A DNA stretch of 64,000 nt from Halarcobacter sp. (GTDB lineage Bacteria > Campylobacterota > Campylobacteria > Campylobacterales > Arcobacteraceae). Of the stretch, positions 5,959 through 39,706 are shown piece after piece. Made by a program: the position numbers and the translations under genes. Position 1 is the stretch's first letter. Every line of letters begins with the position of its first letter. The stretch covers positions 2,560,001-2,624,000 of the forward strand of contig OY781089.1 of NCBI GenBank assembly GCA_963676565.1, in the 5' to 3' direction. Under the pieces are notes generated by a model. It was not told where the DNA came from. It worked only from the letters and a program-made list of their open reading frames with translations, and ran no database searches.

Positions 5959-5976
5959 ATGCAAGAAATATTCCCT
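5959..5976 (-). promoter_or_regulatory. sigma54 (-24/-12) promoter motif
   Basis: Minus strand GG-AATATTTCTT-GC-AT (GG 5974-5973, GC 5962-5961), 35 bp from the ATG. Confidence 0.6.
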
Positions 5977-5990
5977 AAGCTTTTTTTACT

Positions 5991-7547
5991 CTACATAAAC
6001 CTTTCAAAGCTTTGAGGATATGGAGTATTTAATAAATCACCCTTTTGCATAGGTGGAAACAATTCATCATATCTTTTATAGCTAGTTTGGTCTAACCTTC
6101 TAAAAATATGTGTTCTATTTAGCTTGTGTGGATTATCAAGTCCTGCTGATGCAATTATCTCAATAAAACTTTCTAAAGTTACTTCATGAAAATTTGCAAC
6201 TCTTTGTTTTTTGTCTTCGACTACAAGTCCTTTTGCTAATCTTGGATTTTGAGTAGCAACACCCGTTGGGCAAGTATTTTTATGACATTGTAAAGCCTGA
6301 ATACATCCAAGACTTAACATCATTCCTCTAGCACTTGCTACTAAATCAGCCCCAAGAGAGAAGGCTTTAGCTATATCCATTCCATTTAAAATTTTTCCAG
6401 AAGCAACAACTTTAATCTCATCTTTTAAATTAAATCCATTTAAACAATCAACTACAAAAACCAAGGCCTCTCTAAGTGGCATACCAACAGAATTTGTATA
6501 TTCTAAAGGAGCAGCACCAGTTCCACCTTCACCACCATCAACAGTTATAAAATCTGGTCTAATGTTATGTTCAACCATTGCTTTACAAATATCAATAAAT
6601 TCCTCTTTTCTTCCAACACAAAGTTTAAATCCAACGGGCTTTCCTTCAGTTAAATCCCTTAATCTTTTAATAAATTTTAAAAGTCCTAAACTTGAATTAA
6701 AAGCACTGTGTGTTGGTGGAGAATCAACTCTTGTATGTGGTTTAACATCTCTATCCTCAGCTATTTCAAGGGTATTTTTATTTGCTGGTAAAATACCGCC
6801 ATGTCCAGGTTTTGCCCCTTGAGAAAGTTTAATCTCAATCATTTTTACATTTTCATTTAATGCTTTTTTAGTAAATTTTTCTTCATGAAAATTTCCATCT
6901 TCATCTCTACAACCAAAATATCCAGTTCCAATTTGCCATATCAAATCACAATTAGATGCTAAATGATATCTACTTAATCCACCTTCCCCTGTGTTTAAAG
7001 CAAAATTTCCAATTTTAGCGCCATGTCCTAAAGCCATAATAGCATTTGAACTTAAGGCTCCAAAACTCATGGCAGAAATATTTAAAATAGATGAATCATA
7101 TGGGACTTTACAATCACTACCACCTATTAATACTCTTGGACTTAAGTCTAAATCATGGGCTTTTAAAGCATGTAAAGAGTGTCCTATCCACTCATAACCT
7201 TCTTGATAAACATCCATCTTAGTTCCAAAAGGAATTGTACTTTGTTGTTTTTTTGAACGTCTATAAACTACACTTCTTGCTTGTCTATTAATTGGAACCC
7301 CATCCATATCAGATTCAATAAAATATTGTCTAATAGGAGGTCTAAGCTCTTCTAAAACCCATCTCATACGTGCAACTACAGGGAAGTTTCTCCATAAGGC
7401 ATGTTTAGTTTGTTTTGTATCATAAATACCAACTGCAATTAAAACTGCAAATATCAAAGCAAGCCATAAAAATGATAAATCGATAATAGAAAGGATAATT
7501 ATAAAAATAGATCCAAAGATGATAATTTTTTGAAATAGTTTAGGCAT
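5991..7547 (-). CDS. FMN-binding glutamate synthase family protein
   Basis: SAMSFGALS, NTGEGG, EIKLSQGAKPGHGG, DGGEGGTGAAP, CIQALQCHKNTCPTGVATQ; likely start MPKLF at 7547. Confidence 0.88.
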   Translation of the reverse strand: MPKLFQKIIIFGSIFIIILSIIDLSFLWLALIFAVLIAVGIYDTKQTKHALWRNFPVVARMRWVLEELRPPIRQYFIESDMDGVPINRQARSVVYRRSKKQQSTIPFGTKMDVYQEGYEWIGHSLHALKAHDLDLSPRVLIGGSDCKVPYDSSILNISAMSFGALSSNAIMALGHGAKIGNFALNTGEGGLSRYHLASNCDLIWQIGTGYFGCRDEDGNFHEEKFTKKALNENVKMIEIKLSQGAKPGHGGILPANKNTLEIAEDRDVKPHTRVDSPPTHSAFNSSLGLLKFIKRLRDLTEGKPVGFKLCVGRKEEFIDICKAMVEHNIRPDFITVDGGEGGTGAAPLEYTNSVGMPLREALVFVVDCLNGFNLKDEIKVVASGKILNGMDIAKAFSLGADLVASARGMMLSLGCIQALQCHKNTCPTGVATQNPRLAKGLVVEDKKQRVANFHEVTLESFIEIIASAGLDNPHKLNRTHIFRRLDQTSYKRYDELFPPMQKGDLLNTPYPQSFERFM

Positions 7548-7588
7548 AAGGAAGTCTCTTTTTTTATTTTTATTATACAAAAAAGAGA

Positions 7589-7891
7589 TTAATTAGAAGG
7601 TTTATATTTTTTAGTTATCCTTGCAAAATCATAAAAATCACTTAACATTAAATAGCGAATTTGAATATCTTCAAATTTCTTATGAACTATTTCTAAACCT
7701 TCATTATATAATCTTACATCTTCAATAAATTCATTTGGATAATCAAGCTTTTCCTCTTTTATTTGAGGGAAACATTCCATAAATTGAAAAAAAAGTTTAT
7801 TTACAAGTTCTTTTTTTTCATTGCTTGGTTCTTTTAAAAAACCTTTTAGAGTTTCAAACTCTTTACAAATTTCTACTAAACACTTGTACAT
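7589..7891 (-). CDS. Hypothetical protein
   Basis: 100-aa ORF overlapping the end of the upstream ArsC-family gene (operon). Confidence 0.7.
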   Translation of the reverse strand: MYKCLVEICKEFETLKGFLKEPSNEKKELVNKLFFQFMECFPQIKEEKLDYPNEFIEDVRLYNEGLEIVHKKFEDIQIRYLMLSDFYDFARITKKYKPSN

Positions 7892-8301
7892 GAATCACTA
7901 CTACTTTGACAAGTACCAATTTGTTTTTTTGTATCAAGTTCTAAATCTAAGACATCATTTAATTTTGCCATATCAAATCCACAAATTTTACTATCATCTA
8001 CAATTATCAAAGGTCTTTTTATTAAAATTGGATCATTAATCATTTTATATATCAATTGTTCTTTGGTGACTGAATTTAAGTCAATTTCACCGTTTTTTAT
8101 CTTTGGAGCAGTTTCATTTACAATTTCATTTTTTTCTAGTCCTACAAAAAATGACTCTAAGGTTTTTTTGTCCCATTTTGTATCAAGTATAGATTTAACT
8201 TCAAACTCAAGACCGTTGGCTTTTAAAAGCTCTTTTTGTTTTTTATTTCCTAAACAACCAGGCTTCTCATAAAAAACAATCTTTTTTTTAACATAAAACA
8301 T
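7876..8301 (-). CDS. ArsC/Spx-family protein, nitrogenase-associated type
   Basis: IVFYEKPGC..N.KQK..L...G, APKIKNGE, DPILIKRPL..GFD matches the pattern of the nitrogenase-associated ArsC subfamily. Confidence 0.75.
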   Translation of the reverse strand: MFYVKKKIVFYEKPGCLGNKKQKELLKANGLEFEVKSILDTKWDKKTLESFFVGLEKNEIVNETAPKIKNGEIDLNSVTKEQLIYKMINDPILIKRPLIIVDDSKICGFDMAKLNDVLDLELDTKKQIGTCQSSSDSCTSV

Positions 8302-8328
8302 TTTGTCTCCTTCATCCTAATAATCTAT

Positions 8329-8346
8329 ATGCAAATATCATGCCTT
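8329..8346 (-). promoter_or_regulatory. sigma54 (-24/-12) promoter motif
   Basis: Minus strand AA-GG-CATGATATTT-GC-AT, 30 bp from ATG 8301. Confidence 0.7.
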
Positions 8347-8355
8347 TTATTGTTT

Positions 8356-8373
8356 ACGGTATTATTTTTGCAT
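8356..8373 (+). promoter_or_regulatory. Possible divergent sigma54 promoter motif
   Basis: AC-GG-TATTATTTTT-GC-AT, 35 bp before ATG 8406; an overlapping TATAAT makes sigma70 an alternative. Confidence 0.45.
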
Positions 8374-8405
8374 ATAATACTTTTTTTCAATTACAAAGGT
8401 ATTAC

Positions 8406-9578
8406 ATGCTTTCAAAATATTCATTCGGAACTTATAGAACAACTTATCAAAATCCAATTCATAAAGAAGCTTTAAATTTTGCATTAGATAATGGGATTAC
8501 TCATATTGATACTTCATCAAACTATATGCATGGTGAAGCAGAAATTATGATAGGTCAAATAATAGAAAATAGAAATAGAGAAGATTTCACTATTGTTTCA
8601 AAGGGTGGTTATATCCAAGGTGAAAACCTAAAAAGAGTTATGGAAGGCTTTAAAGTTGAAGATTTAGTAAGATATGATGAAAACTGTTTTCACAGTATCC
8701 ATGAAGAGTTTTTAGAAGATCAAATCAATAGAAGTTTAGAAAGATTAAAAACAAACTACATCGATGTCTATCTACTTCATAATCCCGAATACTACTTATT
8801 AAAAGAGATAAAAGTTGGTATGACAGAACAAGCCATCTTAAAACACCACGAGATTATGCAACAAAGAATAAAAAGAGCCTTTGCCTTTTTAGAAGCAAAG
8901 GTTAAAGAAGGAAAAATAAAAGCCTATGGTATTAGCTCAAACTCCTTTGCAAAAAAAAGAATAAATTACCACTTTTTAGAGTATAAACACTTAATAAACT
9001 ATGCAAAAGAGATTGCAGGAGATAATCACAATTTTAAAGTAATACAATTGCCTATGAATATGTTTGAAAATGATGGTGAAGAGTGTGCAAAATGGGCCCA
9101 TGAAAATGGTTTAGAAGTTCATATTAATAGACCATTAAATGCGATGAAAGAGGATAGAATGATTAGGCTTGCTTCATATGAAGAGTGTATAAATTATGAT
9201 TCCCTTTTAGCTCAAATTAGAGAAATAAATAATGATGCCTTTCAAGAGGTTATTGACCAGATTTTAAAAATAGAAAATGATTACAGATGGGCTGGCGATG
9301 TTGATGATATATTAGAGTATCAAGTAATCCCTTATATTGTTCAAAATATCAATCTTGACCCAGTTTATTTTCAATTAGTTGATAACTTTTTAAACTGTTA
9401 TAAAAGTAATATAAAAAGTAGAATTTCAAAAGAAGTAGCAAAGGAAATAAATATAAATGGTCCAATAGATGGTGTTGCTTTAAAATATTTGGAACAAAAA
9501 GAGTATGTTACAAGAATACTTGTGGGGATGAGAGATAAAAGATATGTAAAAAAGATTTTAGATTACTCTAAAATCTAA
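8406..9578 (+). CDS. Aldo/keto reductase family protein
   Basis: FGTYR, HIDTSSNY, SKGGY, SLERLKTNYIDVYLLHNPE, YGISSN; start taken at ATG 8406 after AAGG. Confidence 0.85.
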   Translation: MLSKYSFGTYRTTYQNPIHKEALNFALDNGITHIDTSSNYMHGEAEIMIGQIIENRNREDFTIVSKGGYIQGENLKRVMEGFKVEDLVRYDENCFHSIHEEFLEDQINRSLERLKTNYIDVYLLHNPEYYLLKEIKVGMTEQAILKHHEIMQQRIKRAFAFLEAKVKEGKIKAYGISSNSFAKKRINYHFLEYKHLINYAKEIAGDNHNFKVIQLPMNMFENDGEECAKWAHENGLEVHINRPLNAMKEDRMIRLASYEECINYDSLLAQIREINNDAFQEVIDQILKIENDYRWAGDVDDILEYQVIPYIVQNINLDPVYFQLVDNFLNCYKSNIKSRISKEVAKEININGPIDGVALKYLEQKEYVTRILVGMRDKRYVKKILDYSKI

Positions 9579-10454
9579 TCTTTTAAGCTCTCTTTTTTTA
9601 TACCATTGTAGTAAAATATATGAGATTATAATTGCTGCAATGGTTCTAATTACTACAACCATAGTAAAATCAGCACCAAATATTACAAACAATAAAGTAT
9701 CTTCAATAACTGCGTGACAAATCATCAAAAAAGTACCTATATAGAAAATATCATCCTTAGAGATATTTCCACTTTCAACCTCTTTTATTAAAATTCCAGC
9801 TCCATAAGTAATACCTAAAATTATACCAACAGTAATAGAAAAACCTTTACTAACATTTTTTTGTGATTGTTTAATAAACTTTCTACTTTTTATGAAATCC
9901 ATCAAAAAAATCAATGCAGTTATTAAAATAATTACTGTGATACTTAATTCAATTGAATTTAAAATAGAACTTTGCAATAAATCACCAATACTTTCATATG
10001 TTTGTTTTTCAAACACAGAATCAGTTAAACTTGCACTAAAAAGTTTTGCAGGTAATAATGAAGTAAAAAAAGCAACTATAAAAGCACTAATTATCCTAAG
10101 GCTATATGAATAAAAATTACCTATTCCAATTTTTTTCATAATTACACCTTCTACAGGAAGTGCATGTGCAATACCTACAAAAACAGCTAAAATCGACCAC
10201 TGGTGAATAGTTAAATCCAATGGTGCAGCAAAAGCAACAGAAGCATAAACATTTAAAAACATTCCACTAATAATTGCAAGTGAAGTTTCAGGTGGCAAAC
10301 CAATTATTGAAGTAAATGGTTCTATTAAAAAACTAACATAGGATAAAGTATTATAGTAAAATAGTATATCTGCAATAATATAAATAGGTATGATTAGCTT
10401 TAAAACTATCCATGCACTTTTTATTGATGATTTGAAACTTTCTTTGTAATTCAT
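9558..10454 (-). CDS. Membrane protein, nucleoside-recognition (Gate) domain type
   Basis: Multiple TM helices; HALPVE and CHAVIEDTLLF motifs. Confidence 0.7.
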   Translation of the reverse strand: MNYKESFKSSIKSAWIVLKLIIPIYIIADILFYYNTLSYVSFLIEPFTSIIGLPPETSLAIISGMFLNVYASVAFAAPLDLTIHQWSILAVFVGIAHALPVEGVIMKKIGIGNFYSYSLRIISAFIVAFFTSLLPAKLFSASLTDSVFEKQTYESIGDLLQSSILNSIELSITVIILITALIFLMDFIKSRKFIKQSQKNVSKGFSITVGIILGITYGAGILIKEVESGNISKDDIFYIGTFLMICHAVIEDTLLFVIFGADFTMVVVIRTIAAIIISYILLQWYKKRELKRLDFRVI

Positions 10455-10457
10455 AAA

Positions 10458-11417
10458 TTAAGCTAAGCCATTTACAATATTTATTGGTTTTTTACCATCA
10501 AGAACTCTTTTTACATTTAGAGCAGCTTTTTGTCTCATCTCAAAATAAGCTTTATCACTATAAAAAGCAGAATGTGGATTAATCATAAATCTTCCATCAA
10601 GCCACTTTTCTTTTGCTTTCCAAGCATCTATCATTTTTCCACTTACTGGCGGTTCACTTGGAAGAACATCTAAACTAACACAATTTAAATGTCCAGATTT
10701 TAAAGGTTCATAAAAAACATCTAAATCTTTTACAATAGCACCACGTGCAGTATTTACAAGTGAACTTCCTGGTTTCATTTTAGAGATAAACTCTTCATCA
10801 ATCATTGCATTTGTCTCTTTATTTAAAGGAGCATTTATAGAGATAATATCGCAAGTTTCAAGTAATTCGTCAAGATTGTCAAATCTTTTTGCACCAAGCA
10901 TTTTTTCAGTTCCACTTGAAAGATATGGATCATAAAAATGTGTTTGAAATCTTAGGGCATTTGCTTTTAATAAAACACTTCCCCCTATTCTTCCTGCTCC
11001 AATAACACCAAGCTTATAATCGCTTGTTCTTTTGATATATTTTAATGTATTAGTTTGCCATGTTCCATCATCATACTCTCTACATTGATAATCATATCTA
11101 GTAATTCCACGGGCAATATTCATAATCATAGCAATTGATGTATCACTTACTTCATCTGTACCATAATCAGGTGTATTTGAAGCATAAATCCCTTTTGATT
11201 TAATATATTCCAAATCTTGAAACACATCATAACCTACACCGTATCTAACTAAAGCTTTTAGATTTGGTAGTTTATCAATAAATTCATTTGTAATTTTATG
11301 ATGCCAAACTAAAAGTACCTCTATACCCTCATGAAGTTCAGATGATAATTCATCCCCTAAAACATCTCTTTCAATATCAGGGTTTGTAACCTTATCTGTA
11401 ATATAAACTCTTTTCAT
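10458..11417 (-). CDS. D-isomer-specific 2-hydroxyacid dehydrogenase (CtBP-like)
   Basis: RYGVGYD, NTPDYG, GAGRIG, VNTARG, LDVLPSEP, PHSAFYS. Confidence 0.88.
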   Translation of the reverse strand: MKRVYITDKVTNPDIERDVLGDELSSELHEGIEVLLVWHHKITNEFIDKLPNLKALVRYGVGYDVFQDLEYIKSKGIYASNTPDYGTDEVSDTSIAMIMNIARGITRYDYQCREYDDGTWQTNTLKYIKRTSDYKLGVIGAGRIGGSVLLKANALRFQTHFYDPYLSSGTEKMLGAKRFDNLDELLETCDIISINAPLNKETNAMIDEEFISKMKPGSSLVNTARGAIVKDLDVFYEPLKSGHLNCVSLDVLPSEPPVSGKMIDAWKAKEKWLDGRFMINPHSAFYSDKAYFEMRQKAALNVKRVLDGKKPINIVNGLA

Positions 11418-11487
11418 AATATCTCCAAAATATCTATAAATATTAGCTTGATATTTTAGTTAAATATTGCAAAAAGTTAAGAATTTT

Positions 11488-12225
11488 TTACTCAATTATT
11501 CTTTTAGCTAGTTTTTCTATAACTTTCTTTTTTAGGATATGAATATCACTTTGCTTTACCCATAACAAGGCTTCTTTTTTATAATATTCTAAAATAAGAG
11601 GGTCAATAGATTCTTTTTTTTCATCCATTTTTTGTAAAAAATCTTTTAATTCTCCTTCATCAAAATCTTCAAATTTTTCTAACTTAAAATATAAAGCTTC
11701 TAAGAAATCATTATCGATAAAATCTTTACTTCTTTTTAAAAACTTTGTAGCTTCTGTTTCTAAAGCTTTTATATCATTCCATTTTCTTCCAGTTTTAAGC
11801 TGGTCAATTGCTACAGGTAAAAACACAGGAACTAGATCTAAAACTTGATTTAACTCACTAAAATCATTATCAACCATAGATCTAAAAAGCATTCTAGTTC
11901 TGTTTCTAATTTTTACTCTTAGATTATCATCTTTTATTACATCTTTATGAATTAACTGAAATCTTCTAAGAGCAGGTAATTTTGAGTGATTAAAAGCCAT
12001 AATAGAAACAAGTGGGGCACTATCAGCTATTTGCTCCTCCCTTGAGCCATTTGGTCTACAAAATGCCCAATAAAGCCTAGCTTCCATATCTTCATGATTT
12101 AGATATTTTTCATCCCCTAAGCTTTCAAAATCATCCTCATCTTTTAGTAGTTCTACTTCATCTTTATATGTTAAATTGAATAACTCTTCCAAAACGTTCA
12201 AACCTTTTAATATTTTTTTTCTCAC
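11488..12225 (-). CDS. Hypothetical protein (last gene of AAA+/VWA operon); start uncertain
   Basis: 245-aa ORF overlapping the VWA gene end; conserved-looking RLYWAFCRP motif. Confidence 0.7.
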   Translation of the reverse strand: MRKKILKGLNVLEELFNLTYKDEVELLKDEDDFESLGDEKYLNHEDMEARLYWAFCRPNGSREEQIADSAPLVSIMAFNHSKLPALRRFQLIHKDVIKDDNLRVKIRNRTRMLFRSMVDNDFSELNQVLDLVPVFLPVAIDQLKTGRKWNDIKALETEATKFLKRSKDFIDNDFLEALYFKLEKFEDFDEGELKDFLQKMDEKKESIDPLILEYYKKEALLWVKQSDIHILKKKVIEKLAKRIIE

Positions 12226-13384
12226 TTATTATAAATAGTGTCTTACAAACTAAACTTTCATACATCTCAAATTCACCATCAGTTAAAACCATAAGTAAGT
12301 TATCACTTCTGATATCACTTGATTTTTTTAAATATCTTAAAACTTCATCAAAATTTGTTCCACCATCACTTTTAGGGATAAAAAGTTCTTTTTCTATCAA
12401 GGGATTAAAGGAATCAAACTCGATTATATGCTCCTCTTTAACTTTTAAATCAAAAGGAAGAACCTTTACTTTATATTCATAGAAACCTTCACAAACATCT
12501 TTTACTACCCCTAGAAATTTTTTATATTCATCAAGGGTAACACTTGAACTACTATCAAGTGCTATAAAAACCTCAATCATCTCGTCACTTTTTTTATTCC
12601 CAGGTAAATACAATCCACTATGAACAAATTTTCTATTTGGCCTTGAGTAAGTTGATGTTTTTTCAAACAGTGATGAGATTAAATACTCTTTTAAAGTATC
12701 TTGTAGTGAAATTTCAGGTTTTATTAAAGTATCTATTTCAATTTGCATTCCCTGATACTCTTTTGAACTTTTTTTAGCTATTGAAAGTGCTTGTATTATG
12801 ATTCCATCTAATTTTTCTCTATCACCACTACTTGTATTTTCATCATTTACCTCTTCTATATCCATCTTTGATTCATCATAGATATAAGCTTTTAATTTAC
12901 CATCTTCTTTTGGTTTAGTTTTTATCTCATCATCTTTTTTTTCTTCTGAAGAGCTTTCATTTTTTTCTTCTTCTTTTCTAAGGATTTCATAGACCTCTTC
13001 AACACATTTATTTTCTAAGTCTAAATCTAATATCTCATCAGTTGGCATTTTCCCTATATTTGAGAAACTATATAAAACCAAATTTGTAACTAAATCACAA
13101 GCTTGATTCCAAAGTTTTTTCTCTCTTGTTCTTTGTCTAAAGGGGTGTTTTAAAACTATGTGTAAAAGTGTGTGGGCATAAAGATAAGTTATCTCATCAC
13201 TAGAATAACTTTGTAGTTTTTTTAAATCAATAAATATCTCTTTACCATTAGTTTGAAATGCACTATTACTATTATCTTTAAAACTAGTTGGAATTGATAA
13301 TGCTAATACAGAAAGAAAGGGATGGTTAAATAAAAAGTTAATCCTTATTTTCTGAAAAACTTCATCATATGATATACTCACCAT
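12164..13384 (-). CDS. DUF2201-type protein: metallopeptidase-like N-terminus plus VWA-like domain
   Basis: AFQTNG, AH..LHIVLKH, WNQACD..N; C-terminal MIDAS-like DSSSS, GGTNF, TDGE; likely start MVSIS at 13384. Confidence 0.8.
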   Translation of the reverse strand: MVSISYDEVFQKIRINFLFNHPFLSVLALSIPTSFKDNSNSAFQTNGKEIFIDLKKLQSYSSDEITYLYAHTLLHIVLKHPFRQRTREKKLWNQACDLVTNLVLYSFSNIGKMPTDEILDLDLENKCVEEVYEILRKEEEKNESSSEEKKDDEIKTKPKEDGKLKAYIYDESKMDIEEVNDENTSSGDREKLDGIIIQALSIAKKSSKEYQGMQIEIDTLIKPEISLQDTLKEYLISSLFEKTSTYSRPNRKFVHSGLYLPGNKKSDEMIEVFIALDSSSSVTLDEYKKFLGVVKDVCEGFYEYKVKVLPFDLKVKEEHIIEFDSFNPLIEKELFIPKSDGGTNFDEVLRYLKKSSDIRSDNLLMVLTDGEFEMYESLVCKTLFIISEKKNIKRFERFGRVIQFNI

Positions 13385-14372
13385 ACTGCTCCATCCAAGT
13401 ATCAAACTCTTCAAGTTCTGCTATATCTTCATCTTTGACTATTAAATCTTTAATAAGCATCACATTAAACTCAACTGGAAGATGATTTGCATATTTAAAT
13501 AAATTCTTTCCTTGAGAATTCCCTTTATATTTTTCAATTATTGCTGCACATAAAGCATATAAAGCACTAGGTTCGTCTGGAACAACATCACTTTCTCCTT
13601 CCAAGATAGCATCAATATCAGGTAACGTTTTATAAACTTTTACAAAAGAGATAAACTCAATGCCTGCACCATATCCAACAGTTCCGTAAACAACTGGATG
13701 AATACAATTTAGATCTTCATTCTTTTTTAAAATATTGGATAACATATTCCATGCTCTTGGTGTACAAAAAGCTGGATTTGTTTCAGTTGAACTTGGTACC
13801 TCATTACTTAATAAATCTGGACGAAAGCCTAAAAAACCTATAACAAAAGGATGTATCTCATTTTTGATTGCCCAAATTTTAAAATCATCATATTTAGCTT
13901 CCAAAACAATATGTACCATCCTATTAATAAGTGGACTTGGAAGTTTAAAAACAATACCTTTATCATCTATTTTATTTCCAGCACAAATGATTCTCCAACC
14001 CCTAGGCAGTGTGTACTCACCAATTTTCCTATCTAAAACCAACTGATAAATTGCAGCTTGAACTGAAAGTGGAGCTGAGTTTAACTCATCTAAAAAAAGT
14101 ATTCCTTCAGAATCTTCATTGGAGGGTAAAAAAATTGGTGGCATCCATTTTGTTTGATTATTAGATATTGTAGGAATTCCCCTTAAATCAACTGCATCAA
14201 GTTGAGAAAGTCTTACATCTATAAGCTTTAAATCATTTTGTTTTGCAATATCATTTACAATATATGATTTTCCAATTCCTGGACTACCATGGATAAATAA
14301 AGGTATATCTACATCTATTAAAACTTGGATTTGTTTATATAATTCAGTTGTTCCTATAGAAGGTGTAATCAT
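13365..14372 (-). CDS. MoxR-like AAA+ ATPase
   Basis: GSPGIGKS, DLRGIP, ILFLDELN, CAGN, TPRAW. Confidence 0.85.
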   Translation of the reverse strand: MITPSIGTTELYKQIQVLIDVDIPLFIHGSPGIGKSYIVNDIAKQNDLKLIDVRLSQLDAVDLRGIPTISNNQTKWMPPIFLPSNEDSEGILFLDELNSAPLSVQAAIYQLVLDRKIGEYTLPRGWRIICAGNKIDDKGIVFKLPSPLINRMVHIVLEAKYDDFKIWAIKNEIHPFVIGFLGFRPDLLSNEVPSSTETNPAFCTPRAWNMLSNILKKNEDLNCIHPVVYGTVGYGAGIEFISFVKVYKTLPDIDAILEGESDVVPDEPSALYALCAAIIEKYKGNSQGKNLFKYANHLPVEFNVMLIKDLIVKDEDIAELEEFDTWMEQYGEYII

Positions 14373-14380: not shown

Positions 14381-14569
14381 CTATGAAAGTTTTAGCTCTT
14401 TTAGTATCTCTTGTAAATCTTTATTTAAATCGGTGATTTTTTCTAGAACTTTATCTTTTTGCTCATTTGACATTGAAAATTTGCTATCAATATTTTCATA
14501 AATTTTTAAAGAGTCAGTAAAAATCTTTTGCATCAAATCTTGTTTTATTTTTTCTTCTAAAATACCCAT
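14381..14569 (-). CDS. Small helical hypothetical protein
   Basis: 62-aa ORF with AGGAG RBS in the same operon. Confidence 0.65.
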   Translation of the reverse strand: MGILEEKIKQDLMQKIFTDSLKIYENIDSKFSMSNEQKDKVLEKITDLNKDLQEILKELKLS

Positions 14570-14582: not shown

Positions 14583-14965
14583 TTAAACTTTTTTTAGAAA
14601 GCTAGCTAAATCACTATCCATACTTATTAGATGTAAATCAAACCAATCTGGAAGCTTTTGTATATAGTAAGCTTTTAATAGTTGCTTACCAATAGAAGTG
14701 TTACTTTTTTCTAAAAAAAACTGCATCTCATGTAGTACTTTTTGATGTTCCTCTTTATGCTCTCTTGAAGTTGGATAATTAAATTGATCCATTTGTAATT
14801 CTTCATAAAAAAATGTCTTTTTGTATGTTCTATTAACTCTTTTGTTTTATTTATTATACTGCCAATTGAATTGCTGTCTGCACCATTATAAATCTGAACA
14901 AACTCTTTATGAATCTCATCCATTTCATTGTGTTTTAGAAGATGCTTATTATCTTTAAATTCCAT
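14583..14965 (-). pseudogene. Hemerythrin-family protein split by a 1-nt frameshift in a homopolymer
   Basis: The 5' ORF has MDEIHKEF..HTKRHF and the 3' ORF has HKEEH..WFDLHLISMD. Adding one T to the T7 run (plus A7, 14807-14813) restores HFFYEELQM (HFxxEExxM). Confidence 0.8.
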
Positions 14966-14994: not shown

Positions 14995-15012
14995 ATGCAA
15001 TAACTATACCCC
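14995..15012 (-). promoter_or_regulatory. sigma54 (-24/-12) promoter motif
   Basis: Minus strand GG-GG-TATAGTTATT-GC-AT, 32 bp from ATG 14965. Confidence 0.65.
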
Positions 15013-15179: not shown

Positions 15180-15878
15180 ATGCAATTTGAAAAACTTATA
15201 CATGGAAAACTAATAAAAAGATATAAAAGATTTTTAGCAGATATTATACTTGATGATGGAAGTGAAATAACTGCCCATGTTCCAAATAGTGGTGCAATGA
15301 CAAGTTGTATTGAAGAAAATTGTGATGTTTGGGTTACACACCATGATAATCCAAAAAGAAAACTAAAATATACCCTTGAACTTACTCGTATGGGTGATAA
15401 CTTAATCTGTACAAATACAGGTGTTGCAAATAAAATTGCAATCGAAGCAATTGAAAATGGCGTAATAACTGAATTACAAGATTATGATAATCTAAAACCA
15501 GAACAAAAATATGGAAATCAAAACAGTAGAATTGATATTTTATTGTGGAATAACAATAGTGATAAAAAATGTTTTGTTGAGATTAAAAGTGTAAGTTTAA
15601 ACCTTGGTGATACCTTAGCATTTCCAGATGCCAAGACAACTAGAGGTCAAAAACATTTAGAAGAGTTAAGAGATATGGTGCAAGAAGGTCATAGAGCAGT
15701 AATGCTTTATATAATCCAAAGAACAGATAATCTTCCTTTTAGAATAGCACATGAAATTGATAAAAAATATAATGAGATTTTTGAAGAGGTAATAAAACAA
15801 GGTGTGGAAGTTTTAGTTTATCAATCTGATATAAATCATGAAGAGATAAATGTAGTAAAAAAAGTAGAATTTAAGTAA
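15180..15878 (+). CDS. sfsA: DNA/RNA nuclease SfsA
   Basis: KRYKRFLAD, AHVPNSGAM, SRID, VEIKSV, FPDAKTTRGQKHL. Confidence 0.93.
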   Translation: MQFEKLIHGKLIKRYKRFLADIILDDGSEITAHVPNSGAMTSCIEENCDVWVTHHDNPKRKLKYTLELTRMGDNLICTNTGVANKIAIEAIENGVITELQDYDNLKPEQKYGNQNSRIDILLWNNNSDKKCFVEIKSVSLNLGDTLAFPDAKTTRGQKHLEELRDMVQEGHRAVMLYIIQRTDNLPFRIAHEIDKKYNEIFEEVIKQGVEVLVYQSDINHEEINVVKKVEFK

Positions 15879-32464: not shown

Positions 32465-32513
32465 ATAAAATATTATACTTAGAAAACTCTCATACTTTTC
32501 TAAATATGCAAGT

Positions 32514-33821
32514 TTAGATTTTTCTTTCTTTTATAAATTCAATAACTTTTTTTGCACTTTCTTTTGAACCATATAAAGAGCTATCAAGAGTTATATGATA
32601 GTTAGTAGCATCTCTCCAATCCTTTTTTGTAAAATGCATACAATAATTTGCTCTTTTTTCATCAGAGTCTTTTAAATCATTATCCCCAAAAGGTGATTTT
32701 GCTTTGTAGATTTTATTTATTTTATCTTTTCTATATTCATTATTAGCATGGATAAAAACATTTATGCAATTTGGATGATCTTTTAAAATAAAATTTGCAC
32801 AACGACCTACAATAACACAAGACTCTTTTTCACAAATATCTCTTATAATCTTACTTTGAATTAAAAAAAGTACATCTTTAGGTGGTAATTCATCATTTAC
32901 ATAATTAAAGTTTTGTTCATATAAATCATACAATAAAGAGTTTGTGAGTTTTTGTTCATTTTCTTGAATATATTCATGGGTATAACCTGTTTTCTGCGAA
33001 GTTAAATCAATTAACTCTTTATCATAAAAAGCAACTCCTAGCTCTTTTGCTATATATTTACCTATTTCATGTCCACCACTACCATATTCTCTTGAGATAG
33101 TAATCACAAAAGTATTGTTATATTTATCACTAATATCTTCAATATCTGATTCTTTTGTAACTTCATCAGCAAGCCAATTTTCAATAAAAGGTAGCTTTGT
33201 ACTAAAATATTTTATCATTGCTCCTATTAATAAAGCAGCAATAATACTACCTTCTCTAATTCCAACTAAATGATTTAAGAAAATAAAAGAACTGATAACT
33301 CCTAAAATCACCATCAAAGTATCCATAGATATCTTTATTTTTCCAAACTCTTTTTTGAAGGTTTTAGATATAACGACTACTAAGCCTTCCAAAGGAAGAT
33401 ATGTAAGTCTTGATTTAACTACAAGGAAAATACCAAAGGCTAATACAGCACAAGAGATTAAACATAAGATTAATTGTTCTATATAATTTGAAGGTATTAA
33501 ACTCTCTACTAAAAACATTGCAACATCAATGCAATATCCAAATACTATAATTGCAGGAAGTTGTACCAATTGAAAAGGATTGTATTTTTTACGAAGTATT
33601 GCTATTTGAATCCCCATAAATAAGACATTTAATAGTATTGTAAACTGTCCAATAGTTAAGGGAAAATATACACTATAAATATATGGTACACATGATATTG
33701 GGGATACTCCTATATCTGCTTTAACGGAAAATGAAACTCCAAATGACATAATAAAAAGTCCCACAATAAATACAAAAAGCCTTTTAAATAAATTTATATT
33801 GATAATATTTTCTTTTTTCAT
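32514..33821 (-). CDS. YczE/YitT-like membrane domain fused to cytidylate-kinase-like domain
   Basis: N-terminal ADIGVSP..GIREGS membrane domain; C-terminal ITISREYGSGG, VIVGRCA, NYHITLDS. Confidence 0.8.
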   Translation of the reverse strand: MKKENIININLFKRLFVFIVGLFIMSFGVSFSVKADIGVSPISCVPYIYSVYFPLTIGQFTILLNVLFMGIQIAILRKKYNPFQLVQLPAIIVFGYCIDVAMFLVESLIPSNYIEQLILCLISCAVLAFGIFLVVKSRLTYLPLEGLVVVISKTFKKEFGKIKISMDTLMVILGVISSFIFLNHLVGIREGSIIAALLIGAMIKYFSTKLPFIENWLADEVTKESDIEDISDKYNNTFVITISREYGSGGHEIGKYIAKELGVAFYDKELIDLTSQKTGYTHEYIQENEQKLTNSLLYDLYEQNFNYVNDELPPKDVLFLIQSKIIRDICEKESCVIVGRCANFILKDHPNCINVFIHANNEYRKDKINKIYKAKSPFGDNDLKDSDEKRANYCMHFTKKDWRDATNYHITLDSSLYGSKESAKKVIEFIKERKI

Positions 33822-33840
33822 CTTTCTCTTTTCTTAAAAT

Positions 33841-33857
33841 AACTGTACAGTACGGTT
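33841..33857. promoter_or_regulatory. Probable TetR operator
   Basis: AACTGTAC-A-GTACGGTT near-perfect palindrome between the divergent tetR and membrane gene. Confidence 0.6.
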
Positions 33858-33918
33858 TAATTAAAGGGATATTATCCATTTAAATGTTAATATTACTTTA
33901 ATAAATAGGAATAGTTTA

Positions 33919-34527
33919 ATGAGAAAGAAAACAGAAGAAAAAAAAGAAGAGATAATAAAAGCTGCTAAAGAGGTTTTTAAAGAGTTTGGTTTTGAAAAAG
34001 CCTCAATGTCAAAAATAAGTTCAAAGCTTGGTGGATCTAAAGCAACACTGTATAACTACTTCTCTTCAAAAGAAGAACTTTTTTTTGAAGTTATTTCTAT
34101 TGCAAATGCCCAAGAAAGTGATTTTGTACATCAAATTATAGATACTAAAAATGAAACCCTTGATATTCATACCCAACTATACGAATTTGGAAAAAGGTTT
34201 ATAAATTTTGTATATTCTCAAAAAATGGTTGAAATAAGAAGACTCACAATAAGTCAATCAGAGATAACAAACCTAGGTAGAATTACGTATAAAAACCGAG
34301 TATTAAAAAGTCGAGAAATACTTTCTAAATATTTAGAAAAAGCAATAAAGTTTAATAAAATAAAAAAAACAGATACAAATATAGCAGCAATACATTTTTT
34401 TGGACTTTTAGAATCGGAGTTGATGTATCCATTTCTTTTTCAAGTTGATACAAATTTTTCAAAAAAACATATGGATGAGATGGCTGAAAGGGCAATTGAT
34501 ATTTTTATATTAGCATATGGCGTCTAA
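33919..34527 (+). CDS. TetR/AcrR-family regulator
   Basis: GFEKASM..I...GGSKATLYNYFSSKEELF. Confidence 0.92.
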   Translation: MRKKTEEKKEEIIKAAKEVFKEFGFEKASMSKISSKLGGSKATLYNYFSSKEELFFEVISIANAQESDFVHQIIDTKNETLDIHTQLYEFGKRFINFVYSQKMVEIRRLTISQSEITNLGRITYKNRVLKSREILSKYLEKAIKFNKIKKTDTNIAAIHFFGLLESELMYPFLFQVDTNFSKKHMDEMAERAIDIFILAYGV

Positions 34528-34542
34528 GACTTCATATAGCTA

Positions 34543-35772
34543 TTATAATAACCCCTGCTCTCTTAACTTATCTTTTTTACTTTTTCTTTTACCTTTTATT
34601 GGTGCACTTCCTTTTTGTTTTGTAGTATTTGAAATAGTAAAATCAAAGCCATCTATTTGCTCTTTTTTTATATCTAATTTATATCTTTTTTCTATTAGTT
34701 TAAAGTGGTTTAGATTTTCATTATCTAAAAAAGATATAGCTGTTCCACTTTTCCCTGCTCTTGCTGTTCTTCCTATTCTATGAATATAATCTTCTGTACT
34801 TCTTGGCAAATCAAAATTTACAACACAATCAATATCATCAATATGCAAACCCCTTGATGCAATATCAGTGGAAAAAAGTATATCTATCTTTTTATTTTTA
34901 AAATCATTTAGAGTTAGACTTCTCTCCTCTTGGGTTAAATCTCCATGAAAAGATTCAGCCTCATATCCTTTTTTGATAAACTTATTTGCAATATTATCTG
35001 CTGCTCTTTTATTTGCCATAAAAACCAATACTGATTTAAAGTTATTCTCTTTTATTAGATGTCTTAAAAGCGCACTTCTATCCTCTTTTTTTACAAATAT
35101 TGCCCTTTGAGTTATCTCTTTCACATTTGTATTTGAATCTTCGATTTCTACTTTTAAGGCTTTGCTAGTTATCTTTGAAGATATATCAATAACTTTTGGT
35201 GAATATGTTGCAGAAAATAAAAGATTTTGTCTATTCTTTGGAATAATCTTTAAAATCTCATCAAGTTCTTGAACAAAACCTAAATCAAGCATCTTATCAG
35301 CTTCATCTAAAACAAAATATTCAATAGTAGATAAATCAATTTGCTTTTTACCTATAATATCAAGAAGTCTTCCTGAAGTTGCAACTACTATATCACACCC
35401 CTTTTGTATCTTTAAAAGTTGTTCCCCTATCTTTTCTCCACCTATAATAGAAACTATAGAAAGGGCTTTTGGAAAATATTGACTAAGGTCTGAAAATGTT
35501 TGGGCAATTTGAAGAGTTAATTCCCTTGTTGGAGCTAAAACCAACACTTTTATTTTTGCTTTTTTTTGTGTTTTATTCTCTTTCAATGATTCTAAAATAG
35601 GAATAACAAAACTTGCAGTTTTACCACTTCCTGTTTTTGCCTGAGCCATAATATCTTGTTTTGTTTTTACAAGAGGGATTACCTTTGTTTGAATAGGAGT
35701 TGGAGTTTTATAATTGTTTTGCTCTAAAGATTTTGAAAGTTCTAAAGATAGATTGAATATATCAAATGACAA
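34543..35772 (-). CDS. DEAD-box RNA helicase
   Basis: PTPIQ, AKTGSGKT, PTREL, DEAD, SAT, HRIGRTAR. Confidence 0.93.
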   Translation of the reverse strand: MSFDIFNLSLELSKSLEQNNYKTPTPIQTKVIPLVKTKQDIMAQAKTGSGKTASFVIPILESLKENKTQKKAKIKVLVLAPTRELTLQIAQTFSDLSQYFPKALSIVSIIGGEKIGEQLLKIQKGCDIVVATSGRLLDIIGKKQIDLSTIEYFVLDEADKMLDLGFVQELDEILKIIPKNRQNLLFSATYSPKVIDISSKITSKALKVEIEDSNTNVKEITQRAIFVKKEDRSALLRHLIKENNFKSVLVFMANKRAADNIANKFIKKGYEAESFHGDLTQEERSLTLNDFKNKKIDILFSTDIASRGLHIDDIDCVVNFDLPRSTEDYIHRIGRTARAGKSGTAISFLDNENLNHFKLIEKRYKLDIKKEQIDGFDFTISNTTKQKGSAPIKGKRKSKKDKLREQGLL

Positions 35773-35790
35773 GATTTTCCTTTTAGTTTA

Positions 35791-36084
35791 TTATATAGAT
35801 TTTTCAGAATTTTTAGAAATCTGAGTATTGTAAATATTTGCGACATGAATTAAACTTGTGACTTTAATTAGAGGTTTTATCAAAAGCTGTGCACTTCCAA
35901 CTATAAATAGCCAAGTTCCACTATTCATTAATGTATCATTTAAAAAGAAAAAGCTACCTGTTAAAAACCAAATAGCTATAAGCAAATCATTGAAAGCACC
36001 TAAAAACTCATAACGTCTTTGTATAACAATATGCTGATTTCCAACATCTACATCAAGTTCATTTTCTTTTTCATAAAAATTCAA
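35791..36084 (-). CDS. YrhK-like small membrane protein
   Basis: RYE....ND....WF..GS.FF......GTWLF..GS.Q.LIKP. Confidence 0.75.
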   Translation of the reverse strand: MNFYEKENELDVDVGNQHIVIQRRYEFLGAFNDLLIAIWFLTGSFFFLNDTLMNSGTWLFIVGSAQLLIKPLIKVTSLIHVANIYNTQISKNSEKSI

Positions 36085-36102
36085 TTTTTCTCCTCAATTC
36101 TT

Positions 36103-36420
36103 TTATTCACCATTTAATACAGACATTACAGTTGCCCTACTTGTTTTTAGTTCTTTTGTAATTTTAGCAATATTTATATCACCATTATCATTGTAATATT
36201 CTTCATCATCTAACATTCTTAAGATCTCATCTTTTTTATCAAGTATCTCCTGAGAACTATCTCTTTTAGCAAATGTAAAATCCTCTTCACTCATAGTTTC
36301 CATAGCTACTAAATCTCTTTTTATAGTTTGAACTGTAACCTTAAGCTCTTTTGCTAAATCCTTTGGGTCTTCAATTCCTCTTAAGATTAAATCTCTTATG
36401 GCAATTCTTCTTGTTTTCAT
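36103..36420 (-). CDS. Small HTH-containing hypothetical protein
   Basis: LAKELKVTVQTIKRDL and a second IAKITKELKTSRATV helix-turn-helix; start MKTRR. Confidence 0.7.
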   Translation of the reverse strand: MKTRRIAIRDLILRGIEDPKDLAKELKVTVQTIKRDLVAMETMSEEDFTFAKRDSSQEILDKKDEILRMLDDEEYYNDNGDINIAKITKELKTSRATVMSVLNGE

Positions 36421-36458
36421 TTTTCTTCTACGATGATATGAGATTTTCATTTATGTCC

Positions 36459-37220
36459 TCATTTTTTAGTTGATAAACTTATAAACCACAAATTACAAAT
36501 ATGTTTATAAATAGTTATATATGATTCAAGTTTTAAGATATCTTTTTTTGTAAAAGTTTTTAGGTACTTTTTCAATAGATATCTTTTTTCATTTTTATCT
36601 AAATCAAATTCAAAACAAATAGTTGCAAGGTCAAAAAATGCATCATTTAAACCTACATATTCCCAATCAATAAACTTAATATCTTTTTTATAAAAAAGAA
36701 TATTTTGAGGGTTTAAATCGTGATGGCATATAACTAATCTTTTTTTATATTTTTCTAAATTTTTTAACTCTTTTTTACATATCTTTAGACTATTTTTTGC
36801 CTCTTTTGTTTTTAGATAATTGTAATTTTTCAACTCTTTTTTTAAATTCAATTTTTTTGATTTAATCTTAATATTATGAAGTTTTTTTAAAGTTATAATT
36901 AAAGCTTTTAAATCCTCTTTATCTAATTTAGTTTTGTGCTTGCCTTTTAAAAAATTATAAATCATAAAACTTTTATTTTTATCAAGATAAATTGGTTTTG
37001 AAGCAATACCTTCTTTATAAGCTTTTTTTTGAATCTTATACTCAAAATCTCTACTTATATTTACAGTTGCATCACTTCTAAACTCCCTTAAAACATAAGT
37101 GTTTTTTGAAGTTTTCAACTCATAGTTTATATTACAAAAACCTTGATTTTTCAATGGTTCAAGAGTTAAAACCTCTTCATTTTTAAATATCTTATAATCT
37201 TGAAGTTTCTGTATTATCAT
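36459..37220 (-). CDS. Choline/thiamine-kinase-like phosphotransferase
   Basis: GFCNINY, CHHDLNPQNI, IDWEY; overlaps pnuC. Confidence 0.78.
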   Translation of the reverse strand: MIIQKLQDYKIFKNEEVLTLEPLKNQGFCNINYELKTSKNTYVLREFRSDATVNISRDFEYKIQKKAYKEGIASKPIYLDKNKSFMIYNFLKGKHKTKLDKEDLKALIITLKKLHNIKIKSKKLNLKKELKNYNYLKTKEAKNSLKICKKELKNLEKYKKRLVICHHDLNPQNILFYKKDIKFIDWEYVGLNDAFFDLATICFEFDLDKNEKRYLLKKYLKTFTKKDILKLESYITIYKHICNLWFISLSTKK

Positions 37221-37809
37221 ACTCTTTTTTCCAGTTTTGATATGCAACAAATGCTAATATAGTGTAAATCATAAATAAAACAGCTGTTAGATTTAAACCT
37301 TTTTGAATATAGATGTAAATAGAAACAATATCAATAACTATCCAATATATCCAATTTTCTATAATCTTTTTTGCAAGCATATAAGTTGAAAAGACTGCAA
37401 ATACTGTTGTAAAAGAATCAACATAAGCAAAATCAGCACTAGTATAATTTGCCATAACATATCCAAAACCTAAAGAGATAATACTTAAAACTATAATGAT
37501 TTGAATATTTTTACTTAAACCAAATGTTGATACTTCTAACTCTTGTTGTTCTAATTTACCACCAAATTTCCATGAATACCAACCATAAACTGCCATAATA
37601 AGATAATAAGCATTTAAAGCTGAATCCATAAGTAATGATACATCATAAAAAAGTATTGTATAAATAAGTGTTGAGACAAAGGCAGCTGGCCAACACCAAA
37701 GGCTTTGTTTTATTGCTAAAACTATGTAAGCTATTGCTAAAATCATAGCAATAGCTTCATAAGTAGTCATTACATTTAATGACTCAATTACTGTTTGCAT
37801 AAATTCCAA
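37192..37809 (-). CDS. pnuC: PnuC-family vitamin transporter
   Basis: WCWPAA, YGWYSW, DSFTT, KKIIENWIYWIVID. Confidence 0.88.
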   Translation of the reverse strand: MEFMQTVIESLNVMTTYEAIAMILAIAYIVLAIKQSLWCWPAAFVSTLIYTILFYDVSLLMDSALNAYYLIMAVYGWYSWKFGGKLEQQELEVSTFGLSKNIQIIIVLSIISLGFGYVMANYTSADFAYVDSFTTVFAVFSTYMLAKKIIENWIYWIVIDIVSIYIYIQKGLNLTAVLFMIYTILAFVAYQNWKKEYDNTETSRL

Positions 37810-37883
37810 AGTATATAATCCTCTATATTTTTTTAAATGGATTTTAATTAAATATACTGAGAATCATATAAAATAAAGAAAAT

Positions 37884-38846
37884 TTATTTCAAAATATGAG
37901 TTCTATCTTTACTTGATTTAACTCTTCCTGTTTTTATGGTGTTAAATATATGTTCAAAAACTTTCCCTGGGTTTCCTTTTTTATTTGTTAGAAAATATGA
38001 ATGACCTTTTGGATAATCATATTTATTACTCAATTCTTCACAATCAATTGAATAAACATTTTTTTGAACTTTTGATATATCTTCAGGGCCTGTATGGCCT
38101 AATCTTCTTGATGCAATTCTATTTTTTAGATTTGATACTTTACTAGCTCTTAAAGCCAGGTCACTAGATGAAAAGTAAACTGAAACATTGCTACTTGATT
38201 GACTTATAAATCTTCCTTTTTTATCCTCTTCCAAAGATTCATTTACAATATCTGCAGCCACTAAAAAGCTATGTCTAAATAAAAGAGGAACCCCATTTGC
38301 TAAATCATATCTATTCCATTGGTGTAAAGTTTCCCTATAAACTCTATTTCCCATAGAATGACTTAATACACTTATTCTTTTTAAACATATATCTTCATCT
38401 TTTGTGTAAGCATCTCTCCATTTCATAAACTTTTGAAGCACTCTTGCAAATGAAAAAGAACTAACATCTGCTGATTTTTGATCATCCCAATAATCTTTTA
38501 TAATACCTTTGTCATTATCACATGGCCAAATTATAGGTATCACTAGAACTAAGTCTTTCTCTTTTTCATCAAATAACTTTTGGAGAGTTTTAACTCTAGG
38601 AAAGATATCATTTTCTGGAAGATTAGAAAATCCATGAATAAAAAGAAGTATATTTTTAGCTTTTGACAATTTTAATTGTTTCATTAGGTTTGTTGAACCA
38701 ATTTCCATATAATCATTTTCGCTATTTCTTTCACAATAATATACTGAATTAGAAGGTGCATTTTTATCTAAATCAAAATCATACTTTACCCCTGCAGTTT
38801 GCTTTGCAAAGCTACCTTTTGGCTCTCTATTTGTTATAAAATACAT
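37884..38846 (-). CDS. DUF900-type alpha/beta hydrolase
   Basis: YFITNR, FIHGFSN, WP, SHSMGN, VAAD, D.AL..S, RLG, GHSY. Confidence 0.8.
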   Translation of the reverse strand: MYFITNREPKGSFAKQTAGVKYDFDLDKNAPSNSVYYCERNSENDYMEIGSTNLMKQLKLSKAKNILLFIHGFSNLPENDIFPRVKTLQKLFDEKEKDLVLVIPIIWPCDNDKGIIKDYWDDQKSADVSSFSFARVLQKFMKWRDAYTKDEDICLKRISVLSHSMGNRVYRETLHQWNRYDLANGVPLLFRHSFLVAADIVNESLEEDKKGRFISQSSSNVSVYFSSSDLALRASKVSNLKNRIASRRLGHTGPEDISKVQKNVYSIDCEELSNKYDYPKGHSYFLTNKKGNPGKVFEHIFNTIKTGRVKSSKDRTHILK

Positions 38847-39067
38847 ACTTTTCTCCTTTATTTTGTTACTTTAGAAATCAGTTCCTTTTGAAGATATAGT
38901 TTTTAATAAATTTTATAAATAATGAATAATTTTATATATTATAACAATATTTATATTCTTTTAAGTAATTTTTTTAGTAATTAATTAAATATTTTTAAAA
39001 AAGCTTATGTATTTGTTTAATTGATAAATTTAAATTAGGCTAAAATAATTTTCTTTAGCCTAGTTTT

Positions 39068-39580
39068 TTATAAGATTTTGTTTATATCTTCGATTAGTTT
39101 TTGTGAGTTTTCATCTAATTTTGTATTAGAGTTTTTTGAAATAAAATCTTCTATACCTGAAGTTCTCATAGAAAATTGTTTTGAATATTTAATTATCTCT
39201 TCATCTAAGTTACTAACTCCAGCTTTTGTTTGAACTAAATAGATATTGAAACTATTATCTTCTATTGTGAATTTTACATGGTTAAAATAAACCTTTGCAT
39301 CTTTAAATATCAAATCTAAGGTAAGTGTATCTTTTCTAAAAAAAGGAAAGGCTTGTTGTGCTTCTCCTAAAACTTCTGTGATTAGATAATAAGCTAAAGT
39401 ATCAGGTGTCAAGTTATCAGTACTAATTCTTTTTTCCTGTTTATTAAAGTATTCATCAACTAATCTAATAAAAAAATTAGATGACATAACACCAATATCT
39501 TTTAATATTACACAATTTATGTATTCATAAACTAAATGTGCATTCTCTTTTATAAATGCTTTCAGCTCTTTTTCTTGCAT
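39068..39580 (-). CDS. Hypothetical protein
   Basis: 170-aa ORF with AGGA RBS; followed by inverted repeat TAGGCTAAA..TTTAGCCTA (~39036-39062). Confidence 0.7.
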   Translation of the reverse strand: MQEKELKAFIKENAHLVYEYINCVILKDIGVMSSNFFIRLVDEYFNKQEKRISTDNLTPDTLAYYLITEVLGEAQQAFPFFRKDTLTLDLIFKDAKVYFNHVKFTIEDNSFNIYLVQTKAGVSNLDEEIIKYSKQFSMRTSGIEDFISKNSNTKLDENSQKLIEDINKIL

Positions 39581-39688
39581 TTTTGTTTCCTATAAAAATA
39601 TATTTATTTAAAAAAAAGATTTTATCTAATTAGTTGTTAAATAGTTAAAATGTAGATTTTAAACTAACTTCTAAAAATATTTTGCTTA

Positions 39689-39706
39689 GTGGTACTAAAA
39701 TTGCAT
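39689..39706 (+). promoter_or_regulatory. sigma54 (-24/-12) promoter motif
   Basis: TGGTAC-TAAAA-TTGCAT, near-consensus TGGCAC-N5-TTGCW, 33 bp from ATG 39737. Confidence 0.78.

Follow-up and report, generated by a model that had tools for sequence, protein, structure and literature searches.

The DNA analyzed here is a 64,000-nucleotide (nt) window of the genome of Halarcobacter sp. (GenBank assembly GCA_963676565.1, contig OY781089.1, positions 2,560,001 to 2,624,000), in which five promoter-like sites of the sequence GG-N8-TTGCAT precede scattered genes. Sequence comparison makes it very probable that these sites are sigma54 promoters fired, together with nitrogenase, by the sole NifA-like activator of the cell and that the scattered genes are members of the nitrogen-fixation regulon. 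The motifs, their conservation, the gene content, and the co-occurrence of the genes with nitrogenase were established directly.

Promoter-like sites in the window and in the genome

The motif GG-N8-TTGCAT was found six times in the window (1.5 expected), a number reached in none of 100 shuffles, and the looser motif GG-N8-TTGC was found 26 times (12.1 expected; matched in none of 100 shuffles), whereas a control motif with a 9-nt GG-to-GC spacer gave 2 matches versus 1.4 expected. A scan for sigma70 promoters remained at chance level (58 versus 57.7). Five of the six matches precede genes: (i) 5959..5974 (minus strand) is the predicted -24/-12 site of open reading frame 187 (ORF187); (ii) 8329..8344 (minus strand), before an ArsC-type gene, and (iii) 8358..8373 (plus strand), before an aldo/keto reductase gene, lie back to back; (iv) 14995..15010 (minus strand) heads a hemerythrin-ORF62-AAA-VWA-ORF233 operon; and (v) 39691..39706 (plus strand) belongs to ORF156. 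The sixth, at 13477 on the plus strand, is antisense within the ATPase gene of the operon. At all five sites GG and GC are exactly 10 nt apart, as in sigma54 promoters, and the C of the GC lies 34, 29, 34, 31, and 32 nt, in turn, from the ATG. The original prediction, made from the letters of this stretch, had named the same five motifs, which the counts bear out, with a GC-to-start distance of 30 to 35 bp, close to the 29 to 34 nt measured; three of its positions were exact, and two (8356 and 39689) included 2 nt of flanking sequence. Its gene labels hold, except that the hemerythrin reading frame is shifted in this strain.

Genome-wide, GG-N8-[TG]TGCA occurs 22 to 60 nt before a called start 29 times, versus 3 to 6 times for spacings of 6, 7, 9, and 10 nt. 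We relied on this start-linked count because an earlier intergenic count (32 versus 0 to 6) was inflated by apparent rRNA repeats and imperfect gene calls. Ten of the 29 sites are in the nif island and five in the window; five more clear intergenic sites were counted elsewhere, so that half of the ten non-island sites fall in the window. Those elsewhere (G000:C1:491458, 590780, 857033, 1581432, and 1756587) precede a second AAA/VWA pair, two unknown small proteins, nifS-nifU, and a 130-amino-acid (aa) His-rich protein. Two near-consensus sites (TGGCATGAA..TTGCA, at G000:C1:1252827 and 1254101) are distant from same-strand start codons, and two sigma54 sites in the nif island (G000:C1:737309-737590) stand before very short unannotated ORFs.

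sigma54 and its activator

The 3.34-Mb genome is complete in one contig, its named homologues point to Halarcobacter/Arcobacter, and its nif island lies 1.8 Mb from the window sites. It contains nifHDK and nifEN (four NifD/K/E/N-type genes), a single rpoN at a distance of 2.3 kb from nifH, as well as one strong match to the sigma54-activator family PF00158, which is located in the nif island, has a GAF-AAA-helix-turn-helix (HTH) architecture, and has nifA as its best model. Of the genes whose presence the original prediction had proposed to check (rpoN, nifA, and nifHDK), rpoN and nifHDK are present, along with a NifA-like activator. Ten nif-island promoters (nifH, nifE, nifN, nifX, nifB, nifV, and others, with gene names assigned from sequence and family matches) have the sequence GGAAYA-N4-[TG]TGCAT 30 to 56 nt from the ATG, and the window sites resemble them.

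We compared 150 Arcobacteraceae relatives, 52 with nifH and 98 without. rpoN was found in 51 of the 52 and in none of the 98, and a strong NifA-type match was found in 48 relatives, all with nifH; in 44 of these it is the sole activator match. As rpoN occurs only with nifH and is mostly accompanied by one activator, a functional sigma54 promoter in this family would almost necessarily be NifA-driven. An excerpt of PMC2147049 describes A. butzleri as lacking RpoN and NtrC-type activators.

ORF187, a nif-associated protein family

ORF187 (5363..5926, minus strand) is present in 47 of the 150 relatives, 45 with nifH and 2 without; the latter (G057 and G089) are fragmented genomes carrying nifD/K-type genes, and all 47 have nitrogenase genes. 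The relaxed motif precedes it in all 29 of the relative loci fetched and shifted spacings in none, and in G040, G144, and G001 the gene is inside the nif island. In an order-wide sample of 190 Campylobacterales genomes, 43 of them with nifH, ORF187 was found in 25, of which 24 have nifH; the remaining copy is broken. Homologues (~186 aa) reach the Proteobacteria, where 309 were confirmed. Among the best 80 of these 309, a nif-type gene, recognized by similarity to the proteins of this genome, lies within 6 kb in 37 loci, and nifH was found in all 10 hosts tested. In the 74 of these loci with a usable start, a strict sigma54 site precedes the gene in 42 (controls, 0 to 1), and TGT-N10-ACA, the canonical NifA site, is present within 300 nt upstream in 49, versus a background of 6.7%.

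The family member in Stutzerimonas stutzeri A1501 is ABP79019 (29% identity, linked through a cluster mate), which by synteny is probably PST1324; a literature search gave no paper that mentions this accession. According to an excerpt of PMC2820453, PST1324 adjoins pnfA and is 26-fold induced under N2 fixation. The resemblance to this PnfA operon (PST1325-PST1324) lies in the existence of the A1501 homologue and in three loci in which the ORF187 homologue lies behind a gene of PnfA size that diverges from nifH. However, the ORF187 gene described here is monocistronic and 1.8 Mb from nifH, and its identity to the A1501 protein is low. Azotobacter has many naf genes of unknown function, as stated in part of PMC10581106, and this literature may already cover an ORF187 homologue. 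Weak full-length family matches (20% to 22% identity) were also seen on Bradyrhizobium plasmids (H1 and H2).

No Pfam family was found across 57 ORF187 members, save two single weak matches. The predicted structure is confident (predicted local distance difference test score, 91.8), and the model gave no Foldseek match at an E value of ≤0.001 and no match with Z≥5 among 48,161 chains, which does not prove that the fold is new. Because only Arg, Gly, and Lys residues are invariant across the 57 members, we infer that ORF187 is a protein-binding accessory factor and not a metalloprotein.

The ArsC-type gene, the aldo/keto reductase, and ORF156

The ArsC/Spx-like protein encoded at 7876..8301 (minus strand) scores 116.9 bits against the nitrogenase-associated family TIGR01616 (curated cutoff, 109). 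Its gene is present in 39 relatives, 38 with nifH and 1 without, all 39 with nitrogenase genes. It has its own sigma54 site in 7 of 25 loci; elsewhere it sits behind an ORF233 paralogue, and in 7 of 10 loci that paralogue carries a site. This shorter paralogue (~190 aa, with a conserved acidic tail; L125-L129, L137, and L138) has its own sigma54 site and is often upstream of the ArsC-type gene in relatives; it was not found in this genome. In G001, the orthologues of ORF62, the ArsC-type gene, and ORF187 are in the nif island and have a site each. The arsenate-reductase-like PST1305 of S. stutzeri A1501 is given as 38.7-fold N2 induced in an excerpt of PMC2820453. Behind the ArsC-type gene lies ORF100 (7589..7891, minus strand), an unknown protein without a Pfam family that holds the same position in the loci of nine relatives. 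It is followed by a gene for a flavin mononucleotide (FMN)-binding glutamate-synthase-family protein (5991..7580, minus strand), which is in the same place in G141, G083, and G115 and absent from it in G120 and G056. This gene is a probable passenger, possibly transcribed by read-through from the site at 8344.

The aldo/keto reductase (8406..9578, plus strand) is 29% identical to a paralogue in the nif island. It is present in 24 relatives, 21 with nifH and 3 without, 22 of them with nitrogenase genes. The relaxed motif precedes it in 19 of the 24 loci and shifted spacings in none; the site is kept in 19 of the 22 nitrogenase-bearing relatives and is absent from the non-fixers G123 and G135.

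ORF156 (39737..40207, plus strand), an unknown protein, is the weakest member of the set and is weakly tied to nif. It was found in six relatives, five of them with nifH, and in all six the relaxed motif, and no shifted spacing, precedes it. No family was found for it, and a single-sequence query of metagenome contigs found no relative. An HTH and HipA-type toxin-antitoxin pair (40619-42273) lies just downstream of ORF156.

The hemerythrin-ORF62-AAA+-VWA-ORF233 operon

The first gene of this operon, for hemerythrin (14583..14965, minus strand), is frameshifted. The frameshift is strain specific, since contigs from three other runs have one extra base there, and the gene is intact in other strains and relatives. 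A site precedes the hemerythrin gene in 10 of 11 relatives (the eleventh gene is at a locus edge; controls, 0), and in 5 relatives in which hemerythrin does not lead, a site stands directly before the AAA or VWA gene. sfsA (15180-15878) is divergent from the operon here and in several relatives. The second gene, ORF62 (14381..14569, minus strand), is a weak paralogue of a sigma54-preceded nif-island gene (29% over 45 aa; E value, 3e-4).

The next three genes, all on the minus strand, encode a MoxR-type AAA+ ATPase (13365..14372), a DUF2201_N plus VWA protein (12164..13384), and the unknown protein ORF233 (11488..12192), which lies behind the VWA gene in most of the loci examined. Walker A and B motifs and an AAA_5 domain are present in the ATPase, whose homologues are annotated as MoxR family. 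The adjoining VWA protein has an intact MIDAS (an adhesion site dependent on metal ions), with D277, S279, S281, T343, and D369 invariant in 16 sequences, so that the pair has the features of MoxR AAA+/VWA genes. The HExxH motif of the DUF2201_N domain is replaced by HTLLH, in which H71 and H75 are invariant and Thr is nearly invariant at the Glu position. ORF233 was found in 29 relatives (28 with nifH, 1 without; all 29 with nitrogenase genes), and VWA orthologues, counted at ≥58% identity with weaker paralogue matches set aside, were also found in 29 (28 with nifH, 1 without). Orthologues of the ATPase (≥59% identity) are present in 16 of the 190 order genomes, all with nifH, whereas paralogues of 40% to 45% identity are common in non-fixers. 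In a tree of 42 rows, with partial sequences of <280 aa left out, the orthologues form one diazotroph-only clade (support, 100/100).

In excerpts of PMC9976466, NorQ/NorD, CbbQ/CbbO, and RavA/ViaA likewise have an AAA_5 ATPase adjoining a protein with a C-terminal VWA domain and a DxSxS-T-D MIDAS, and they are tied to metalloenzyme pathways. The pair described here differs in its DUF2201/phage-N4-like subfamily, its Glu-less zincin domain, and the third gene, ORF233. By analogy, we propose that AAA+/VWA/ORF233 may be an ATP-driven remodeler of a nif-related metalloprotein. The pair matches phrog_1297 (E value, 1e-100) and phrog_1314 (E value, 7e-66) in PHROG, as would be expected of a phage-related or defense module rather than a nitrogen-fixation factor. 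Such an origin of the pair is nevertheless very unlikely: no PADLOC match was better than an E value of 1e-4, the orthologues are restricted to diazotrophs, a sigma54 site heads the operon in Arcobacteraceae, and the ATPase orthologues of three genomes from other families lie behind a NifQ-like gene.

Missing enhancers and the NifA protein

The original prediction had seen no clear NifA site, and indeed the 260 nt upstream of each of the five window sites contain no TGT-N10-ACA. Upstream occurrences of the motif were found for 1 of 22 sites in the genome, for none of the 30 and 11 Campylobacterales ORF187 promoters of two locus sets with no locus in common, for none of 20 reductase promoters, and for 1 of 20 nifH promoters. 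The enhancer of canonical NifA regulons is thus generally absent, and the ORF187 family has enhancers in Proteobacteria (49 of 74) and none in Campylobacterales (0 of 41). A dyad search across the 22 promoters of this genome gave no enhancer candidate that survived multiple testing, and among 68 orthologous promoters the top dyads were each driven by a single gene family.

In 18 of 21 genomes, the nifH promoter has a palindrome, TARGAYA-N5-TRTCYTA, 81 to 114 nt upstream. In this genome, it is located at G000:C1:726915, 1581353, 1572597, 815178, 2434531, and 95009, and it also precedes nifS, sufB, an ApbC-like gene, and genes that appear to be sodB and ahpC. Its occurrence before sufB and ApbC-like genes and its background-level score at the window sites led us to set it aside as a NifA enhancer; its distribution suggests a site of an Fe-S/oxidative, Rrf2-like regulator.

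All 13 NifA sequences inspected have a GAFTD loop. Of these, three stop short of the HTH, the recognition helix is degenerate in two, and eight keep a NifA-type recognition helix. In genus g2 (G001, G023, and G072; L309, L310, L313, L329, and L330), the AAA+ domain of the nif-island NifA is intact and its HTH is missing, and in G001 and G023 a distant paralogue has a dead Walker A motif, no GAFTGA loop, and an intact NifA-type HTH. The apparently split NifA of this genus is possibly a heteromeric activator; co-acting activator paralogues are described in part of PMC9542535. The eight retained helices and the HTH on the ATPase-dead paralogue count against pure enhancer independence, and NifA DNA binding therefore probably still matters somewhere, perhaps at nifH.

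It is conceivable, and somewhat less probable than not, that NifA needs upstream sites of a sequence other than TGT-N10-ACA that escaped detection here. The retained HTH would fit such sites, as would the conserved palindrome and the TTTACA/TGTAAA elements enriched upstream of nifH (16 of 20, versus a 37% background). However, neither element is enriched at the ORF187, reductase, or ORF156 promoters, several promoters have 0 to 25 nt of noncoding DNA upstream, no 3-bp dyad is common to the target families, and the palindrome also occurs before sufB and the ApbC-like gene, both without a visible sigma54 site. On balance, we lean slightly toward scattered promoters that fire independently of enhancers. 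As described in part of PMC3162934, FlgR of Helicobacter pylori is similarly the sole activator of a Campylobacterales genome, with a GAFTD variant of GAFTGA and no evident enhancer. FlgR differs in being a receiver-domain flagellar regulator without an HTH, whereas NifA here is GAF type and mostly has an HTH.

Probable assignment of the genes to a nitrogen-fixation regulon

With rpoN present, four of the five units are found together with nitrogenase in the family, in line with the nif coregulation that had been predicted; in the profiling proposed at that time ORF156 is the unit that tracks nif weakly. ORF187, the ArsC-type gene, and ORF233 are confined to diazotrophs, and the VWA gene is so with one exception.

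Several observations weigh against the proposed regulon or limit it. The NifA-like protein scores 518 bits, slightly below the TIGR01817 cutoff of 529, and the relatives are not independent samples. Seven relatives with nifH lack ORF187 and 24 lack a VWA orthologue, and these two proteins are thus not essential. G096 (230 contigs) has a VWA orthologue, and no nif gene was found in it. Diazotroph confinement fails for the reductase (two non-fixers) and ORF156 (one), in three nitrogenase-bearing relatives no site precedes the reductase, and the hemerythrin reading frame is not intact in this strain. Finally, G018 keeps ORF156 and an intact site; in this complete genome nifH, nifD/K, rpoN, and an activator were all not found, and the site may be a relic or a recent transfer.

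The G018 site, and the 3 to 4 matches to a related pattern in each of three non-fixer genomes, would also be expected if the TTGCAT boxes were bound by another factor or had arisen by chance. We regard this as extremely improbable in view of the strict 10-nt spacing, the empty shifted controls, the fixed distance to the ATG, the likeness to nif promoters, and the loss of sites in non-fixers. A less remote, still rather unlikely alternative is that the sites are sigma54/NifA promoters of general stress or housekeeping genes, boosted during N2 fixation and not acting on nitrogenase. The reductase of the two non-fixers, the ATPase paralogues common in non-fixers, and the sites before nifS-nifU and the second AAA/VWA pair fit this explanation, which probably applies to the reductase, hemerythrin, and ORF156. 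It is at odds with the near restriction of ORF187, the ArsC-type gene, ORF233, and the ATPase clade to diazotrophs and with the proximity of proteobacterial ORF187 homologues to nif-type genes.

For a regulon under NifA and sigma54, the following mechanism may be proposed. Arcobacteraceae would keep sigma54 only with nif, mostly with one activator, and the -24/-12 element alone would be nearly sufficient to bring a gene into the regulon. At most of these promoters, NifA would work without TGT-N10-ACA, from solution or via weak sites, which would let genes leave the nif island and yet stay regulated. ORF187 and the ArsC-type protein may be nitrogenase-associated factors acting via protein contact or thiol redox. 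AAA+/VWA/ORF233 may remodel its target at the expense of ATP, the target being a nif-related metalloprotein held by the MIDAS of the VWA protein in the way that NorQD holds NO reductase. In some lineages, hemerythrin and the reductase may have been recruited as helpers against O2/carbonyl stress, and ORF156 may be a recent or loose recruit. The role in O2 protection or maturation that was originally suggested is likewise a prediction.

Comparison with known regulons and significance

NifA targets outside nif clusters are already described in an excerpt of PMC3916325. As presented in parts of PMC2820453 and PMC3916325, S. stutzeri A1501 and Azoarcus BH72 share with this system -24/-12 promoters, a GAF-AAA-HTH activator, and N2-induced hypothetical genes, with some targets outside the nif cluster. 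They differ in having TGT-N10-ACA at their promoters, sigma54 has no other activator here, and the MoxR/VWA triad was not found for those regulons in the same excerpts. Rhodobacter capsulatus, as described in part of PMC6925177, resembles this genome in its single nif-linked rpoN used by nitrogenase activators only and differs in its NifA sites at promoters, its two activator types, and its phylum. By its sequence features, the system would work like a NifA-sigma54 regulon, yet it lacks the canonical enhancer. Dispersed NifA regulons are known, and what appears to be new is these members and the missing enhancers. The set had been predicted to be undescribed, which does not hold for every member: the ArsC-type protein and probably ORF187 have N2-induced, uncharacterized counterparts in S. 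stutzeri A1501. A search of the open-access literature, with subscription journals and bioRxiv supplements outside its scope, found no account of the regulon, the triad, or the missing enhancers, and the text of PMC12316311 contains no Campylobacterota term.

The most far-reaching version, an enhancer-free sigma54 nif regulon in Campylobacterales diazotrophs with a dedicated AAA+/VWA/ORF233 remodeler or reactivator of nitrogenase (or of its cluster-assembly proteins) and a new-fold, cross-phylum nitrogenase factor in ORF187, is doubtful as a whole. If true, it would make AAA+/VWA/ORF233 the nitrogenase counterpart of NorQD or Rubisco activase.

Few studies have addressed the genes of diazotrophy in Campylobacterota. 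Where sigma54 and its activator are each single, the candidate nitrogen-fixation regulon may be read directly from a short motif, including accessory genes that lie beyond the nif island and escape cluster-based surveys. The diazotroph-only AAA+/VWA triad and the widespread ORF187, without a known fold, are candidates for nitrogenase maturation or protection and would be relevant to nitrogenase transfer, and the family may offer a natural system for asking when NifA requires an enhancer.

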